A program made the position numbers and the translations under genes. A DNA stretch of 32,000 bases from Candidatus Peribacteria bacterium (GTDB lineage Bacteria > Patescibacteriota > Gracilibacteria > BD1-5 > UBA6164), in contig CP060226.1 of assembly GCA_023898505.1 (NCBI GenBank), positions 538,152 to 570,151 of the forward strand, written 5' to 3'. Shown in pieces: positions 1-31,572 of the stretch; position 1 is the first letter of the stretch; the number at the start of each line of letters is the position of its first letter. The notes beneath the pieces are model-generated. The model was not told the DNA's origin, did no database searches, and worked only from the letters and a program-made list of their open reading frames with translations.

Positions 1-1
1 T

Positions 2-610
2 GAAGAATGAAAACATATGCTTTGAAAAATTGTCAAACAAATAAATAGTGAATGAAAAATATTAATAAGTGACTTCGATTACTTTAAAGATATTTGTGAT
101 AACCATAAATATTTATACCGTAAAAATAGAGTAATAGATAGTTATGATTATACAGAAGAGTTTTGAACTCCTCTAGATGAAATAGTGAATTCTGCTATTA
201 TAAATAGTATATTAAGTGATTATAGTGAAACATTATACAATCTAGAACAAATTATAAGTTTATGAAAGACAAATGAAGACAACACTTTTTATTATCTAGA
301 TATATCTAATAAAGAAGAAAAAGAAAATATTGAATGAATATCTTTCAATGAAAATAATTGAGATATTTTCAAAAACTGAGAAAAGATTTGAAATATAAGT
401 CCTAGTCTTCAAGAATATAAATTTTTTAAATATTTATATGAAAACAAATGAAAATTAAAAACATATGAAGATATTTTTAAAGAATTTAAAGAATGAAAGA
501 CAGAAAAAACTGAAAGTGAATACTTAAGAGATATAAAAAATAGAATTAAACAAAAAGAAGTAAAGAGTTTAATTAAAAATACTCCAAAAATAGGATATTC
601 AATACCATAA
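2..610 (+). CDS. Hypothetical protein, 5'-partial; the C-terminus resembles an OmpR/PhoB-type winged-helix DNA-binding domain
   Basis: The frame starting at position 2 is open to TAA at 608-610 with many in-frame TGA and no TAA or TAG. The C-terminal sequence YLYENKGKLKTYEDIF...LRDIKNRIKQK...IKNTPKIGYSI resembles trans_reg_C. Confidence 0.6.
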
Positions 611-692
611 CTTTACCATAACTTTTTAAAACCCTTTTAAACTACATACCATTACTTTAAGGCTGACTTGAAAGCCAAGTTGAATAATATTA

Positions 693-727
693 AGACTGTA
701 ATTACAAAACAAAACAGTCTTTTTTTA
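693..727 (+). terminator. Rho-independent terminator
   Basis: The stem agactgt (693-699) pairs with acagtct (714-720) and is followed by a T-run at 721-727. Confidence 0.55.
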
Positions 728-756
728 TTCTGCATAAATTCAAAAGACAAAATAAA

Positions 757-1404
757 ATGTTTCTTAATAGTAAGAATTATCCTTGCAAGGAATTTAATAC
801 TTATTCTTATATGGATAAAGAAGCAAAACAAAAATACTTAGAAAAAAACTCTATATATTTTATTGAAAACACTTTATTTAATTCACTTTCTGTTGAAGAA
901 ATATCAGACTTTGTAAGTCCTTTACATAAAGAATACAAAATACTTGATAAAGAAATAAAAAGTGAAATAAAGAAAATTCAAAATAAATATAAAAACTTAG
1001 ATGAACTTGAAAAGTATTTTATAGAACTACTAGTTAAACTAGAAAATTGATGAGATAGATTAGAAGAGCTAGAAGATACATTAAAAGCCTTTAATACTCA
1101 TTTATATACTAGATTGCCTAGTAATAAATCATATAATAAAGAGTTTAAGAAAATCAATATAAATGATATCCCAATAACTCAAGTTATATGAAAATATATT
1201 AAACTTCCTGATAATTTAAACAGGAATATAAAATGTCCTTTACACAACGAAAGAACTTGAAGTTTTAAGATATATAAAGATACAAATAGCTTTTATTGTT
1301 TTTGATGTTGAAAAGGATGAGGTTCAATAAATTTCATTTCTGAAATAGAGAATATAAGCACAAAAGAAGCTTTTAAAAGATTTATAGAAATGTTTAATTT
1401 ATAG
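757..1404 (+). CDS. CHC2 zinc-finger (DnaG-type primase zinc-finger) protein
   Basis: With TGA read as Gly the C-terminus is IKCPLHNERTGSFKIYKDTNSFYCFGCGKGGGSINFI. Three TGA codons (1303, 1309, 1318) sit exactly at the Gly positions of the conserved CFGCG.GG motif. The stop is TAG at 1402-1404. Confidence 0.8.
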
Positions 1405-1462
1405 AAAAACATTATACAAAATAGTATTCTTGTGAATTTCTTTTCTTACAAGGAGTTTATTA

Positions 1463-2716
1463 GTGTGCCATTTTTATAAATTAACTTACTATTTAAATAA
1501 AAATAAAATGGAGTTTTCCAACATAGATAAACTAGAAAAAAAGATTTCTAGAGAAGATAAATTTTTAGATGACTTAGCTATAAAACTAGAAGATGTAAAA
1601 GAAACTTATATTTACATTAAAAGTTTAGCTAAATATTATTGGGTAGAAGCTAAATTATTCTTTTCTCCTAATGATGTTCAAAATAATACTTTACTATCAA
1701 ATAAAGAGCTAAAATTAGTAAGGCAATATTGATTAATATCTACTTATGATAATCTAGTATATAAAAAAGGATGAAAAGACTGATGTTATAACTTGCTTGA
1801 TGAAAATAAAATATTAAAACCATCTAATAATCCTATACTAGATAAGAATATAGATACATTAATATCCAATGTATGCTGATATAAACAAGAAAATATAGAT
1901 TATTTACATAAATCTATTTTATATAAATATATCAATTTAAACGACTTCACTATCCCCGCAGTTGTATTGTATGGCAAATGATGAAGTGGAAAATGAACTT
2001 TGATGTCATTATTAGAAACCATATTTTGTAAAGATAATGTATTATCTAATTTATGACAAAGAGACCTTTCTTGATTTGATGTGTATAGATGATGAAAACT
2101 AGTAGTAGAATTTGCAGAAATAGCAACTAATAACACTCATAGCGATATTTGAATATTAAACAAACTAAAAAATATAATATGAGCCTGAGAAATAACAATA
2201 AATGAAAAATGAGTGAGACAATACCAAATAGACAATATTGCTTGGTTTTTTATTTCATCTAATTCAAATAAGCCTTTACAACTAGATGATAAAGATAAGG
2301 GTAATAGAAGATTTACGATTATTAAATCTAATTCAGCTTTAGAAAATTGAAAAGAAATAAATGAAGCCGTAAGAGATAAAAAAATTGTATCAAATTATTT
2401 AGCTTGGCTTTATGAAAAATTTCCTGAAGTTTTAGAGTATAGGAACTTAATAGCCTTAGATAATGAAGATAAAAGAGATTTAGAAGAAAGAAGTCAAAGT
2501 GAAGCAAATCAATTCTGGGAATGGTTAGAGGATAATTTCCCTGACTATAAAGGTAAAAAAAGAAAAACAGATATAGAAAGTATGATAAATATGTTTTGTA
2601 TAGAAAACTGAGTAGAAGAAAAAGAGTTTTTAAAATATTTTTGGTCTCACTCAAAATATCCTAAAAAGAAAATCAGAATATGAGCTGATACTTACTATTG
2701 AGTAATAATAGAATAA
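1463..2716 (+). CDS. D5/P4-family primase-associated helicase (P-loop NTPase, SF3-like)
   Basis: A GTG start at 1463 lies 7 nt after AAGGAG; an alternative ATG is at 1508. The Walker A motif YGKGGSGKGT has TGA at 1979, 1982 and 1994 as Gly. Downstream, RRFTII resembles D5/P4 C-terminal domains. The stop is TAA at 2714-2716. Confidence 0.8.
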
Positions 2717-2722
2717 ATCTAT

Positions 2723-2782
2723 TAGAACTCTTAGAACATAGAACAATTAAACCTCATAGCTAAAGGATGTTCTAGTGTTCTA
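2723..2782. promoter_or_regulatory. Cluster of TAGAAC iterons (three direct and two inverted copies); candidate operator or origin
   Basis: TAGAAC occurs at 2723-2728, 2732-2737 and 2739-2744. GTTCTA occurs at 2769-2774 and 2777-2782. The cluster lies in the gap between the helicase gene and the HTH module. Confidence 0.5.
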
Positions 2783-2867
2783 TACGTTCCCTTCAAAAAT
2801 AAGGAGTAATTAACCTTATTATTATATATCAAAAACTTAGTACTAAGTCATAATTAATAAAAAATTT

Positions 2868-3011
2868 ATGACAAAAAAAGATTATTCAAACGAATTAAAA
2901 TACTTAGATAAATATGAAGTTGATGAAGAAAAAAAGATAAGATTTATAGAAAACTTATACAAATTAATAAATATAAATTTCAATAATTTCATAGAAAATA
3001 ATTGACAATAA
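2868..3011 (+). CDS. Small hypothetical protein (47 aa)
   Basis: An ATG at 2868 opens a frame that runs to TAA at 3009-3011 with one in-frame TGA. I recognise no domain. Confidence 0.3.
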
Positions 3012-3060
3012 TTATTCTAAGATTATATTATTTATAATTAACAACTAATATATAAGTAAT

Positions 3061-3264
3061 ATGAGAGTAGAAATAAACCTTTGGGAGCTAATGGGTAAGA
3101 ATAAAATGACAGCTTTAGAGTTGTCTTCTCTTACCTGAATTTCTCCTATTCAAATTTCAAAAATTAAAAATTGAAAAACAACAAAAATAGAACTACAAAC
3201 CATAGCAAAACTTTTAGAAGCTTTTGAATGTAGTCCTAATGAATTAATAAAAATAATTAAATAA
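3061..3264 (+). CDS. XRE/Cro-like helix-turn-helix transcriptional regulator (67 aa)
   Basis: The translation MRVEINLWELMGKNKMTALELSSLTGISPIQISKIKNGKTTKIELQTIAKLLEAFECSPNELIKII matches a short HTH_XRE protein. TGA falls at plausible Gly positions. Confidence 0.75.
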
Positions 3265-3276
3265 CTTTCAAAAAAT

Positions 3277-4941
3277 ATGAACAAAACAGCAGTAATATAT
3301 TGTAGAGTGTCTACAGTTAAACAAGAAAATAATTGAGATAGTTTAAACTCACAAGAAAAAGCTTGTAGAAACTATTGTAAAAATAATGATATACAAGTAC
3401 TTTGAGTTTTTAAAGAAGCCTTTAGCTGAAAAACTAAGAGTAGACCTGTTTTCACAGAAGCTATCAATAATGCTAAAGAAAATGATGTGAATTACTTTGT
3501 AATATTTGATATTGATAGATTTTCTAGAGAATGATATTGAGCTTATTCTGATTTAAAAGAAGACCTATACAATAATAAAATAGAGCTTAGAGATAGTAAA
3601 AACATTATTCAAGGTAACAACCTAGCAGTTAAAAATGATATTGTTGATATGGAACAATATAAATGGAATAGAGAAAATTCTAGTGAATATGCAGAGGTTA
3701 TGATTGCAACCCAAGCACAAATAGAATGAAAGAAGATTATCCAAAGAACAATACCAAGAGAAATAGAATTAGAGCAATTATGATACCAAGTTAGAGCCTC
3801 TAATTATTGATACGAAAACAAAAAAGAAAGAACTATACATTGAAAAGTAAGTATACAATCTAAACATCCTATAGAATGAGATTTTTTAATAGAAATGTTT
3901 GAAGCTAGAGCAAAATGATATTTAAGTGATAAAGAAATAGTAGAAAACTTAGTATTAAAATGATGTAAAAAAAGAAGCTGAAAAATTATGGATGTAAAAT
4001 ATATGCAAGAACTTATTAAAAAGCCTATATATGCAGGAATTATATGTACTAAATGGACTTGAAATAATCCTATTAGAACAGCTTATAAATGATTAGTAGA
4101 TATTAAGACTTGGAATAAAGCTAATAGATGAAAAATAGAAATTGTAGAAATAGATGATAAAGAAGTAAAAATAGAATTTAATAACTGAAAAGAAAAACAA
4201 ATTAATAAACCCATAATAGAAAGAAGAAAAAATTATAATTCAAATTATTTTTATTCTAAGGTTTTAAAGTGTCCTCATTGTTGAGGATACTTAACCTGAA
4301 ATGCTTCTAAATCTAGAGATGGTAGCATACACCCATATTATCAATGTAGATGAAAATGATGAGCTAAACATCCTAATTACAGCATAAGACAAAAGGAAGC
4401 ACATAAAACTATTAATGATATATTTAAAGAAATTAATATAAGAGATAATGCTTTCAATCTATATGAAGAATTATCTAAAAGAATTTTTAATGAAAAGAAA
4501 ACAGAGCTAAAAAATAATACTAAAAGTTATGATGAACAGCTTAAAGAATTAGATAAAAAAGAAAGTGAAATATTAGATAATATAGATAAAGTAATAAACT
4601 ATCCTCAAATACTAGAAAAGAAAAATAAAGAACTAGAAGAAATAAAATCACTTAAATATAAACTAGAGCTTAAAAGGAATGAAAAAGATAATACTTCAAG
4701 TTTAGATAAGTTTCTATATTATTCAAAACAAGTCATCACACACATAGATAAATTAGCTATACAAAAGGAAGAACCTGAAATAATCAATCTAGTTTTTGAT
4801 ATAGTTTATGATTGAAAAATAGAATATCAAAATATAAAAAGTCACACACAAGACTTTAGTAGTTTTTTCTCTCAACAAAGCCATCAAAAAAATCCTCAAA
4901 ACGAGGATTTAGTTGGTTTTCTTAAATGGCAGCCCCACTAG
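3277..4941 (+). CDS. Large serine recombinase (integrase)
   Basis: The N-terminus MNKTAVIYCRVSTVKQ is the resolvase catalytic motif. A zinc ribbon KCPHCGGYLTG...YYQCRGKGG follows. The frame is open from 3277 to TAG at 4939-4941 with about 23 in-frame TGA (hand count). Confidence 0.85.
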
Positions 4942-5001
4942 GAGTCGAACCTAGCACGCAGGATTTGGAGTCCTGAATTATAGCCGATTAACTATGGGGC
5001 T
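4927..5001 (-). tRNA. trnW: tRNA-Trp (anticodon CCA)
   Basis: I folded the cloverleaf by hand. The acceptor stem is AGCCCCA/TGGGGCT, the anticodon arm is CAGGA-CTCCAAA-TCCTG, the T-arm is CTAGG-TTCGACT-CCTAG, the discriminator is G, and CCA is encoded. Confidence 0.85.
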
Positions 5002-8669: not shown

Positions 8670-8724
8670 GGTATCCCTTTCTGTCCTCCGGACATCTTTC
8701 CCTTAAGCCTAAGGGCAAGAAATA
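8670..8724. repeat. Double-hairpin repeat, family C
   Basis: The sequence gtatccctttctgtcctccggacatctttcccttaagcctaagggcaagaaata nearly matches 27131-27186 and is related to 26559-26616. Confidence 0.8.
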
Positions 8725-8865
8725 ACATAAATTCTATCGTACGTTTACATTGCTCTTATTCATCGCAATGTAATTTTTCTTTCAGAAAAACCCTCCATTC
8801 AAATCCTAATAATTATTACTTCTTCTAGCTATTCACTTTTCTCTATTCACTATTCATCTAGATTA

Positions 8866-27295: not shown

Positions 27296-27296
27296 T

Positions 27297-27348
27297 AAAA
27301 ATCTCTTGTGAGTAAAATCTATTTGATTTTATTTGCGAGAGATTTTTA
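27297..27348. terminator. Long hairpin, likely a bidirectional terminator
   Basis: aaaaatctct...agagattttt encloses agtaaaatc/gattttat. Confidence 0.55.
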
Positions 27349-27416
27349 AATTGTAAGTTCCAGGAGATGAGAAACTGAGGCACTTAATAATTCTCTCGAG
27401 GCAAGTATATGGAAAA

Positions 27417-28367
27417 TTACAAGATTAAATTCTCATTTGTAAACCATTGATTTCAAATTTTCTTCGCTATAATCTTTCCTCTGTTTACCAATTGTCTTCC
27501 ATAATCTTCTTTAAACCCTTTTTGGACCATCAGGTCAGCTACTGGTACAAGCTCATAAGATTTATAATGAGATAAAATCAAATAATCCAAACTTTCAAAT
27601 AAATTTCACGATATAGTTTTCTCCAAACTACTGAAATCTCATTTATTTACCCAGTCATCTTTTGGTATATTTAGTGGAAAATAGTCATATAATCCTATTT
27701 CTCATTTTTCCAATCAAGTAAAATATCTTTCTTTTTCTGATTCTACTCACTTAATAATTATATTTGGATATCAATGACAAAGTAATACGTAGTTTATAAG
27801 TACCCTTCATACTCTTCCGTTCCCATCCTCAAATGGATGTATAGATTCAAATAATACATGCAGTTTAGATAAAGAAGAAACTATATTGTCTTCTGTAAAG
27901 TCAAGAATATTTACATATGATATGAAATAATCTAAGCAAAGCAAAACCATACTTCATACAGGAGGTTTAATTCTTACTTTGTTAATCATAATATCTCATA
28001 GCCTATAGTCTCACGGTTTTTTCGATTCTTGTCATCTAAACATCAGAGAATGAATGGTTTTTATATCTGAGTGTTTTAACTCAAACTTTTCCTTGTTTAT
28101 ATATTTTTGGTATCCAAACTCATAGACTAATGAGGCAGAATCAAAATACCCTAGAATTTCCTCTGAGTTTTTAGAATATTTTTTATTTGAAATAGTATTT
28201 TGTATTTCTTTTTTATTTGCAAAGTACCCCTCTATCATAATAGAGTTCCTCGTTTCCTCTTCAAATAGGTACAACCATTCTTTATTCTTTACATTTGGCT
28301 TTGTAAGTGATCAAAACTTCGATAATAATTCTAATCTCCACTTAATAAGTTTTCAAATATTTTTCAT
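27417..28367 (-). CDS. Fic-domain protein (AMPylase family), class II with an N-terminal inhibitory motif
   Basis: The Fic motif HPFEDGNGRVGR lies at 27804-27839, with TGA as Gly. SIMIEG at 28227-28244 fits (S/T)xxxE(G/N). The frame runs from ATG at 28365-28367 to TAA at 27417-27419. Confidence 0.85.
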
Positions 28368-28379
28368 AATTCTAATTTT

Positions 28380-28595
28380 TTATAGATTAAACTCTGTCAT
28401 TTTTCAGTCAACTAATTCATAACATATGTAATTTTCGGGATCTCAGCTATAACCTAAGTGTTCAAATTCTTTTGTTTCTCTTAATCTTTGAAATGCATCC
28501 TCAGGGTTTTCTCATTCTATAATTGCTAATCAACTAGTAGAATCTAAATTCTCAAACTTTTCAGCATAATAAGTTAAAAATATATATTTTTTCAT
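28380..28595 (-). CDS. Small hypothetical protein (71 aa)
   Basis: The frame is open from ATG to TAA with four in-frame TGA, and it ends 12 nt upstream of the Fic start. I recognise no domain. Confidence 0.5.
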
Positions 28596-28621
28596 GGTAT
28601 TTTAGTTAAAATTTAAAGTTT

Positions 28622-29050
28622 TTATAAATAATTGCCAACCCAACTGGCATAATCTTCTATAAGTTGGTGATTTTCTGATTCTTTATCAATAGCCTTAAGC
28701 CGACTTAGTCAAATAGTAAACTTTCTTCTATCTCCTTTTCTTCTTACTTTCACAAATAATTCACTCTCATAATATAAGAGCTCATCAAACTCGATAAAAC
28801 TGAAAGTATCAGTATATGATGGCCTTGTTTTCTTTAACTTCTCATATTCTTCTGGATCTCAATATCAAAAAACATATTTTTCTTCCCAATCAAAGTCATC
28901 TCTTCAAGTAAGTAAACAAGGTTTTTCTATGTTATTAGTTATGTATTTTAGATACTTTTGTAAATTCCCTTTATTTACTCAAATATCTTTTTCCTCTTGC
29001 TTTCACAATATTTTTTTAAATCTTTCTATTTCTTTTTCAAATTCATCCAT
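28622..29050 (-). CDS. Hypothetical protein (142 aa)
   Basis: The translation, verified codon by codon, is MDEFEKEIERFKK...ASWVGNYL. An AGGAGG lies upstream of the start. I recognise no domain. Confidence 0.6.
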
Positions 29051-29077
29051 AATAATTCTAGTTAAAAAATAAAATAA

Positions 29078-31243
29078 TTACCTCCTTATAATCTTATACC
29101 TTCAAGATTTCTCTAACTTGTTATAAAAAGTCTGCCTTTTCTTGAATAACTTATCAAAATAATCTATATTTTTATCATGATAGTCATATATAACTTGTTT
29201 TTTCTTAGTCCTTTGGATTCTTCATATATATTGAATCAATTTTCACTCAAAAGAAAAAGGATAAACTAAAAACAAACAATCTAGCTCTCATATATCAAGT
29301 CACTCTCAAATTAACTGTCATGTAGATATAAGAACCTGAAAGTTTCATGATTTTATTTGCTGAAATTTTAGTTTTCTTTTTCAAATACCATCATCTCAAG
29401 TCAGAGTAATTGTTTCATGCTGATTTTTTAAATACATATTTATAAGCATAACATGGTCTTTTCTCTCAGTAAGAACAATTATTTTACGATTTTTTCAGAT
29501 TTCTTTGATTAAATCTTCTACAATCATAGTATTTCTATCAGTATCGTATACGAGAACTTTTGAAACCATTTCATAATTATCTATTTTATAATCAAATGGA
29601 ACAAAAAGGTTTGTTTCTTTGATATTTATATGATTTTTGATTGAACTTACTTTTTTAAAATCTCTATCAATAGTAGATATTATATCTCAAATATAACAAT
29701 ATATTAATTTTTCATCATTGTTTTTTCTCTTTGGAGTAGCTGTAAAACCATAAATATACTTAGAATTGAAGTTAACGACTGCTTCACGAAAGGTTTTCGC
29801 AGGTATATGATGGCATTCATCTATTATAATAAGTCCAAATTTATTCTTTATTTCACTCAAATCATCTTTTTTTACTATAGTCTGCATCATAGCTATTGTA
29901 ATTCAAGACTTTCAAACCTTATATTTTCAATTTCAAACCTGTCATATATCTTTTTTTATAATTCAAAGGAATGACTCTATTCTCTCAATCCATTGGTCAT
30001 ATAATTCTCTACGATGTACAATAATAAGAGCAGGTTGTTTTTTCCTTGCTATAAATTCAAGTCACATCACTGTTTTACCAGCTCAAGGAGGTGCTACAAT
30101 TATTCATGAATCCTCTTGTTCTATTTCTAAAAGTACTTTTTCTTGGTAATCATATAAATCAATGCTTGAACTATATTCTATTTCTTCAAATGTATTCCTA
30201 TAATCCTTGATAGTATATGTGGTATTATTTTTCTTTAAAAAGTCTTCTAACTGCTTCAAAAATCATATAGGAATAGCAATGTCTAAATCACTTTCATCAA
30301 TAACTTTGAAATACTTTTCAGTTTTATAGGTACTTTTTCATAATCTTTTCTTTACTAAATAGTCAGAATTAAAAAAATTTAAACTATCTTTTAAAAATTT
30401 TATAAGATTCGGTGTAAGATTTTCTCTTTTTATGATGATCTGGTTACGAATAATAATTTCAAATCAATTTATATTGTTACTTATTATAGGTGTTTCTATA
30501 TTTTTATCATCACATACTAAGACAGAATAAATCTCATCTAATTCTTTAACTGAAATTTTCTCTATGTTCTCTAAAAATTCCCACTGATTTTCTATAACAG
30601 AAGCATCTAATACATTTATAAAACAAGAATTATCTTGTTTTAGTGATTCTCACTGAAAAGGTAGAGCAATAAGATTACCAAATCATTTTCAGGTTAGATA
30701 ATCTTGATTTGGGAATAATCTATCAAAACTAAATTCTTTTTCAAAAATACTTACATTTAAAGATTTTTTAAGTAATTCAAAAAGTATTTTTCTACTTTTT
30801 ATGGCAGGATATTTACTTTCAAAGAATATCCATACATGTCATCCATTTCAAGAACGACTTCTTTCTATATAAGTAGGTATATCATAAACTTCACAAACCT
30901 TAATGAGATTCTTGCATTCCTCTAACCAATTTTTCTTATCAAAATCAGCAACTATAAAATTTGAGTTATTATTAGCTAAAAGTGGATAGATTCATAATGT
31001 TTTACCTCAAAGTAAATGACTGTATATTGCTTTATCTGTAAGAGCTAATAAAGTTTTATTCTCAAAATTACTAATATTTCATCATTTAGCTCTATGAGCT
31101 GAAAATTCATTCCAGTCAAAATCATAAGCTGGCATATATCCACTGTTTCAGTTTTTCTCCCAACGAATAGCATATATATCCTCTCTTCATAGAAAAAGAG
31201 ATCTGTATAGTTTAATTTTCTCTTTGGATATAAAATCAGGCAT
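29078..31243 (-). CDS. Fusion protein with an N-terminal AEP/prim-pol-like domain and a C-terminal SF2 DEAH-box helicase (721 aa)
   Basis: AEP-like motifs are IVADFD, SRSGNGGHVWIFF and FDRLFP...GNLIALPF. Helicase motifs are IIVAPPGAGKT, IIIDECHH, FTATP, ISTGQLIGEGLDIGELDCLFL and QYIGRIQR. Many of the motif Gly residues are TGA codons. Confidence 0.85.
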
Positions 31244-31572
31244 AGAAAAATATAGTTAAAAAACTGTCACGATTATACTATCTTATTAAAACGTGACAAA
31301 CTTATTTTTTAGATTTTTCACAAAAAAATAACCAACTTTTTTATATAATTTTGTTGGAAATACGCTACAAAATAAAGTCCTACTACATGCAAATGAGGTA
31401 GGTTTTTTATTTTTTAAGTTATTATTACGGAGAATCGAATGGAGAAAAGGAACTGAAACGAAAGTATGAAATATCACGATGAGTAAGAGTGATGTGAATC
31501 ACTGGAGTCAGTTATCTTTTGGATGCCCGACTTGCGGCAATTCTCCTTCTGGAGTAACAAAAGTAATCATCC

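Follow-up and report, generated by a model that had tools for sequence, protein, structure and literature searches.

A large serine recombinase element at the CCA end of a tRNA-Trp gene, with a predicted attachment site inside its own recombinase gene

The stretch of DNA analysed here (the window; 32,000 nt, G000:C1:538152-570151) lies within a single 1.355-Mb contig of 36.6% GC from a Candidatus Peribacteria bacterium, and it opens with part of an integrative element that abuts a tRNA-Trp gene. Based on the ends of this element, its genes and the corresponding loci of relatives, the element is ~10.95 kb long, occupies G000:C1:532137-543083, and appears to have been inserted by a large serine recombinase (LSR) that it encodes. 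Sequence comparison places the attP site within the 3' part of the LSR gene itself, so that integration at the CCA end of the tRNA gene would alter the C-terminus of the enzyme. As a whole, we consider an LSR element of this kind, with attP in its own gene, a swapped protein tail and the recombination proposed below, to be the best explanation of the locus, with a probability of about 0.85. Positions given without a genome or locus name refer to the window, and the relatives used for comparison are Gracilibacteria metagenome-assembled genomes (MAGs).

Ends, attachment site and recurrence of the element

The LSR gene (3277..4941, forward strand, translation table 25) encodes an integrated, truncated form of 554 residues with the Pfam domains Resolvase, Recombinase and Zn_ribbon_recom, and contains 23 in-frame TGA codons read as Gly. 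The catalytic domain covers residues 5-158 (PF00239, 5.4e-21), the recombinase domain (PF07508) scores 21.2 bits, just at the cut-off, and the zinc ribbon (PF13408) is matched at 1.7e-7. R10, the nucleophile S12 (Ser12) and other residues are invariant among four homologues, and the sole sequence match in the PDB is the catalytic domain of the TP901-1 integrase (E 6.6e-6). In an AlphaFold model of a 55%-identical homologue, encoded by metagenome contig L066 (mean predicted local distance difference test score, pLDDT, 72.5), the protein adopts the canonical LSR fold: long helices at 391-469 follow the zinc ribbon, with a predicted coiled-coil, and a disordered linker at 524-558, which contains the crossover, leads into a helix at 560-583 (pLDDT about 80). 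The enzyme is the only serine recombinase in the genome. Its open reading frame (ORF) ends in ...KWQPH*, with the TAG at 4939-4941. As an earlier note on this DNA had described, the last 15 nt of the frame are antisense to the 3' end of tRNA-Trp(CCA), the integration target (4927..5001, reverse strand, CCA encoded; identified by ARAGORN and Rfam).

The window holds only the right 4.9 kb of the element. GC content rises from 21-26% to 35-40% after position 4926, and the low-GC block runs leftwards past the window start to about 532.0 kb in the genome, with a GC break at both ends. The left end lies 6 kb outside the window, at G000:C1:532129-532136, and the two ends carry an identical 8-nt core, AATGGCAG (attR at 4925..4932, attL at G000:C1:532129-532136). 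This core is the CCA/discriminator end of tRNA-Trp, that is, the antisense of ...CUGCCA-3' plus two bases. The earlier proposals that the attachment core lies in the tRNA and that a second end would be found to the left were thus upheld, the former by the shared core together with homologous arms and a relative's attP contig, whereas the expected long repeat of the tRNA 3' end was not found. The tRNA part that recurs at attL amounts to only 6 nt, TGGCAG, inside the core. Exact k-mers of 13 nt or longer from the tRNA-Trp 3' end do not recur elsewhere in G000, the tRNA-Trp 21-mer has no copy within 3 mismatches in that genome, and the element lacks the Islander signature of a displaced tDNA fragment opposite an intact tDNA. 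The absence of a long repeat does not refute integration, because serine integrases need only a short core; the long-repeat test suits tyrosine integrases. The crossover is placed within AATGGCAG. The core measures 8 nt in G000, 11 nt in G003 (TATGGCAGCCC) and 7 nt in G016, and attL has the same layout in all three genomes: a terminator, then ATGGCA(G), then a left arm that is homologous among them.

On the strand of the tRNA, an element-borne intrinsic terminator lies directly downstream of tRNA-Trp (4890..4910, reverse strand; AAATCCTC-GTTTT-GAGGATTT, then a T-run), within the part of the LSR gene that codes for the linker and tail. A terminator-like hairpin is present at this right end in all four occupied genomes. 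At the left end, a 20-pair terminator hairpin on the minus strand (L003 4081-4127) is followed by AATGGCAG. The native tRNA terminator has thus been left at attL, and attR has a replacement that came with the element. Along with this terminator, the element contributes no more than the final 5-8 nt of the tRNA; the view that it supplies the tRNA 3' end holds to that extent, and does not hold for a segment of 15 nt or longer. Since attP and attB share this core, insertion would leave the tRNA sequence as it was. A further 32-nt segment at 4835..4866 (TAAAAAGTCACACACAAGAC...) is directly repeated, with 75-78% identity, just inside the left end (L003 4147-4178), and the protein motif that it encodes, (S/N)HTQ(D/E)(F/Y), is found on both sides of the crossover. 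The element has no spare, inverted copy of attP, since no inverted repeat of high identity takes in the att arms.

When the two ends of the element are joined, the LSR reading frame runs on from the right end into the left arm without a break, for another 40 residues in G000, 37 in G003 and 48 in G016. For G000, the predicted attP joint runs from window position 4932 to G000:C1:532137 (...AAATGGCAG/TCTAATATT), and the predicted attB joint from G000:C1:532136 to window position 4933. The circular form would encode a protein of 594 residues, in which ...KWQ is followed by 40 residues (SNILNNHTQEYNRFKSFVIRMIDIIEKYKYIIERIDFKKL) in place of the PH of the integrated form. Integration would therefore give the LSR two tRNA-derived residues (PH) and a stop, leaving its native tail of ~40 codons stranded at attL; the overlap between the LSR frame and the tRNA arises because attP lies inside the gene. 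The chance of 40 open codons, given the composition, is ~0.03. Furthermore, seven related elements have kept this added C-terminal segment. In their final 26 residues, the tails of G000 and L066 (G003-type) show 46% identity and 77% positives (E 3e-7) with the same end residue, and six of twelve conserved tail residues use different codons in the two.

L066 is the joined, excised-type (attP) form of the element of the closest relative, and provides direct proof for that relative. Its first 4764 nt match the right end of the G003 element at 99%, and the sequence from position 4754 onwards matches the left arm of G003 at 100%, with the arms joined through the 11-nt core and a continuous ORF of 590 residues. 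The integrated form, which ends ...IWQPH* in tRNA-Trp, is found in the sister samples L064 and L065. Another free and integrated pair, L077 and L078-L080 (tRNA-His), is identical up to the junction, and further such pairs involve L097 (tRNA-Leu), L075, and the tRNA-Lys-type loci L073, L076 and L144. A TGG tryptophan codon, antisense to CCA, is invariant at the junction.

Two of these loci have features of their own. L075 (Ga0193956_1014647), when compared with window positions 4879-4932 and with L035 6806-7283, is a mosaic attP: its P arm, which covers the terminator/linker region, hardly differs from the G000 one, while its P' arm matches the left arm of G016 with 84% identity. This points to a swapping of arms between elements that use the tRNA-Trp site. 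L144 (CP182352.1, 2204595-2214271) carries an attP-form LSR with 30 in-frame TGA codons read as Gly in an assembly labelled as a Halarcobacter sp. MAG chromosome (standard-code Campylobacterota), and it may be a mis-joined or contaminating Gracilibacteria-type element.

Homologous LSRs (36-52% identity) adjoin tRNA-Trp with the same geometry in G003, G016 and G009, across four genera, and G016:C19 holds a 41%-identical LSR paralogue that ends in tRNA-Lys. We extended the comparison to 111 related loci from metagenomes and genomes of Gracilibacteria, Saccharibacteria, Parcu-, Nomura- and Paceibacteria. The stop codon was determinable in 74 of them, and lies within an antisense tRNA in 50, involving nine tRNA kinds; the remaining loci are mostly attP forms, of which there are 12, or ORFs that read right through the tRNA. 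The overlap of LSR and tRNA is thus not due to chance, because homologous LSR ORFs likewise end in antisense tRNAs. Viral contigs gave only distant LSRs (21-25% identity). The search for empty sites, which the earlier note had recommended, was successful: at least seven relatives have tRNA-Trp without an LSR, and in G014 and G017 the empty site has host genes X and Y beside the tRNA. The genes of the element are not core genome, because the site is empty in many relatives. Besides the LSR, none of the element ORFs of at least 90 residues was matched by tblastn in the portions of the G003, G009 and G016 elements that had been retrieved.

Proposed mechanism and alternative readings

In the mechanism that we propose, LSR dimers would synapse attP with an attB made up of a T-rich spacer, the core TGGCA and the tRNA acceptor/T-stem, with strand exchange at 2 bp within ATGGCA. 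Without its conserved C-terminal helix, the prophage-state enzyme would be unlike the episomal one, and the tail swap could serve as a built-in marker of whether the element is integrated and thereby bias direction or activity, much as in IntP/IntX of Mx8. By this analogy, the displaced helix may work as an integration-state switch, a suggestion that we make tentatively. A broader version, to which we give a slightly lower chance and which we regard as rather unlikely, holds that the helix is a cis directionality or activity module of the episomal enzyme only. Integration would then turn an integration-competent LSR into a prophage-state enzyme, a protein-level memory that would have evolved independently of the Mx8 tyrosine case across Patescibacteria tRNA-end elements.

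It may instead be that the C-terminal swap has no function, that attP overlaps the 3' end of the LSR gene for compactness, and that the integrated and episomal enzymes are equivalent; we give this a little less than an even chance. Every canonical LSR domain lies upstream of the crossover. In addition, the attP-form tails of related elements in Saccharibacteria and Parcubacteria, code-11 lineages of the Candidate Phyla Radiation (CPR), are short (13-14 residues) and unrelated in sequence, as might be expected if the overlap can be neutral. The conservation of the longer tail, on the other hand, argues for function: in seven Gracilibacteria-type elements, the 24-residue terminal helix is conserved at the protein level with synonymous changes, it is predicted with good confidence in the L066 model, and the ORF remains open for 37-48 codons in DNA of 77% A+T.

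The island could also be an immobile, decaying remnant in which the LSR/tRNA overlap and the 8-nt repeat are inactive leftovers. Decayed copies do exist in relatives, with a frameshifted LSR gene in G009 and a 45-residue remnant in G002. In G000, however, all 15 element ORFs are open, the LSR retains the invariant catalytic residues, the stranded 40-codon remnant is still open and conserved, and both cores and both terminators are intact, which makes this reading improbable in our view. Far less probable again is an insertion of the tyrosine-integrase type at the tRNA-Trp T-loop with a 21-nt repeat, in which the LSR would be cargo or a resolvase. It is true that G003, G004 and G016 have a duplicate of the 21-nt tRNA 3' end (C56-A76) at tRNA-Trp, as do about 20 further tRNAs of G000. 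Nevertheless, G000 has no such copy for tRNA-Trp, no tyrosine recombinase was found in the element, and the attP contig joins its arms at the CCA-end core. G003 and G016 show the 21-nt tRNA-Trp repeat because a separate motif of ~125 nt, described below, lies just outside attL there, and on the same grounds, together with the joint in the attP contig, we rejected the reading that the T-loop duplicates of G003 and G004 mark the other boundary of the element.

Several observations weigh against insertion by an LSR with attP in its own gene and a meaningful tail swap. An 8-nt repeat alone is weak evidence, and its weight comes only from the homologous arms and the attP contig of the relative. The short, unrelated code-11 tails mean that the swap may be a neutral by-product of where the site is placed. 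No element ORF matched a family of recombination directionality factors (RDFs), although RDFs have no common fold, so this is a weak negative. The activity of the G000 copy is deduced from its intact ORFs and sites. Finally, ~10 kb of host-like DNA separates attL from the ancestral neighbours X and Y in G000, and one insertion is too simple a history for the left flank.

Just left of attL and outside the element lies a methyltransferase-like gene of 360 codons (G000:C1:530855-531937; L003 2855-3937, reverse strand), with 70% TGA among its Gly codons and 31% GC. This gene and the ~10 kb up to the ancestral neighbours of tRNA-Trp hint at older insertions at the site.

Other element genes and a tRNA-linked motif

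Upstream of the LSR gene, all on the forward strand, the window contains the 3' part (1..610) of an ORF of 257 codons that starts at G000:C1:537988; a 215-residue protein with a C-terminal CHC2 (DnaG-type) zinc finger (757..1404; PF01807 3.2e-19, PHROG DNA primase families); a 428-residue DUF5906/VapE-like P-loop helicase with the Walker A motif GKGGSGKGT (1430..2716; PF19263 6.2e-18, PF05272 4.2e-7); a 47-residue ORF without a family match in the Pfam scan (2868..3011); and a 67-residue XRE/Cro-type helix-turn-helix (HTH) protein (3061..3264; HTH_26 2.4e-16). The last two adjoin the LSR gene, and the 47-residue ORF is a candidate accessory or directionality factor. Judging from its domains, the CHC2 zinc-finger protein forms a replication module with the SF3-type helicase. 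The gene order recognised earlier from the letters agrees with the Pfam assignments for CHC2, helicase, XRE HTH and LSR; the winged-helix assignment of the first ORF is weak, since its C-terminus matches Trans_reg_C at E 0.005, below the cut-off.

The genes left of the window encode a membrane protein, an S24 LexA/CI-like repressor, two membrane proteins or lipoproteins, a DUF805 protein, and a cassette resembling the cyclic-oligonucleotide-based anti-phage signalling system (CBASS). This cassette (G000:C1:533817-535960; L003 5817-7960; PADLOC and Pfam) is preceded by the S24 LexA/CI-like repressor gene and starts with a CD-NTase (PDLC00785 cyclase 2.4e-38, SMODS 6.5e-8), after which come an E2-like fragment (4e-7; just 94 residues) and a transmembrane effector (PDLC01057 1.7e-12). 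As predicted from these matches, the element cargo combines a CD-NTase cyclase with an adjacent effector, as CBASS does. Pfam, PHROG and PADLOC scans of the element ORFs yielded no virion, capsid, packaging or P4/PICI helper-exploitation genes (PICI, phage-inducible chromosomal island). TGA accounts for 136 of the 170 Gly codons of the element (80%), compared with 20% in flanking host genes and 19% genome-wide; the statement that almost all Gly codons are TGA was thus right for most of them and overstated the share. TGA share follows low GC, reaching 79% of Gly codons in ORFs below 26% GC.

We also observed a structured motif of 105-135 nt that follows about 20 tRNA genes in G000 on the same strand. 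It lies 6-130 nt downstream of the tRNA, in G000 up to ~320 nt, and 4.1 kb downstream at an island next to tRNA-Glu. In G000, the 3' end of the motif exactly duplicates the final 21 nt of the upstream tRNA (C56 to CCA), except for an imperfect duplicate at the tRNA-Glu island, and the 5' end of the motif is the reverse complement of the first 7-10 nt of its 21-nt copy, with a conserved loop, GAUGAAUAAGAG. Four helices were derived from five copies, with compensatory changes at 15 of 28 pairs. A covariance model identified the motif 20 times in G000 and also in 13 of 24 same-family genomes, with some copies in tandem. When the tails of ten relatives' copies were compared with the local tRNA, four matched at 21/21 positions, two at 20/21, one at 18/21 and two more poorly; for one there was no tRNA in the fetched locus. 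The motif matched no Rfam family and is absent at tRNA-Trp in G000, and this genome has no reverse transcriptase, TnpB or second serine recombinase to account for it. It could be a mobile T-loop mini-element, or a non-coding RNA that mimics the tRNA 3' end.

In the window, one copy lies downstream of tRNA-His (8704-8806) and a long-form copy (31430-31559) closes the tRNA-Glu island; the 18 further G000 copies include G000:C1:829206-829311 and 817641-817747. The island itself is a second low-GC region of ~4.2 kb (27296-31559) that extends from tRNA-Glu(CTC) to the long-form motif, and the only recombinase matches of the genome lie elsewhere. A motif copy also follows, in G000 and in G007, a tRNA with anticodon UCA (G000:C1:640519-640597) that ARAGORN labelled 'SeC' and that is presumably the UGA-reading tRNA-Gly of code 25.

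Relation to known integrases and significance

To our knowledge, serine integrases are usually described as not targeting tRNA genes. In domain architecture, the LSR resembles TP901-1, A118/LI, SPbeta SprA, phiC31 and Bxb1, with resolvase catalytic and recombinase domains and a zinc ribbon with a coiled-coil. As with the serine integrases of phages and integrative and conjugative elements, the integrase gene adjoins attP, and the core is short, with no long repeats. Unlike them, the element targets the CCA end of a tRNA, its LSR gene is written in code 25, and attP would lie inside the ORF, so that integration alters the protein. The likeness to P4-like satellites, PICIs and small integrative plasmids, raised in the earlier note, holds for the small size, the primase-type zinc finger and SF3/D5-like helicase, the small HTH regulators and the tRNA-adjacent site-specific integration; in contrast to P4 and PICIs, the element has no detected tyrosine integrase, capsid-redirecting, packaging or helper-exploitation genes. 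In BPs/Brujita-type mycobacteriophages, which show integration-dependent immunity, attP lies in the 3' end of a gene whose integrated and episomal products differ C-terminally, with regulatory effect. The gene concerned there encodes the repressor, and integration is carried out by a tyrosine recombinase.

The closest published analogues that we found are the integrases of Mx8 and SSV, tyrosine recombinases that extend across attP (PMC4383910): their int coding sequence contains attP, and its 3' end is replaced upon integration at a tRNA gene (PMC6070905, PMC4383910). Serine-family integrases were not known to target tDNAs in the Islander study (PMC4383910). An ORF that is continuous across attP and has a different 3' end once integrated is directly seen in the L066 relative, and is predicted for G000 from the in-frame, conserved continuation. 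The element thus shares with Mx8 IntP/IntX and SSV a covalent record of the integration state, although the tyrosine enzymes are unrelated in fold and mechanism; SSV, moreover, cuts int into two large parts, whereas the LSR would lose only its terminal helix of ~40 residues. Our literature search for a serine integrase that spans attP, or that targets a tRNA in CPR bacteria, returned no description, and we found no paper on a serine integrase with attP in its own gene whose tail is swapped on insertion at a tRNA end.

These results point to an LSR clade that targets the universal CCA end of tRNA genes, keeps the tRNA intact and brings its own terminator. Such LSR elements make up a large share of the mobilome in ultra-small CPR bacteria and have hardly been described. 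The heavy use of TGA for Gly makes the present element readable only in code-25 hosts, to which it brings a predicted anti-phage CBASS cassette. Where large DNA cargo is to be inserted, serine integrases are the principal tools. If the tail swap does alter activity or direction, the enzyme would be a natural, self-contained switch, with a bearing on directionality control and tool design.

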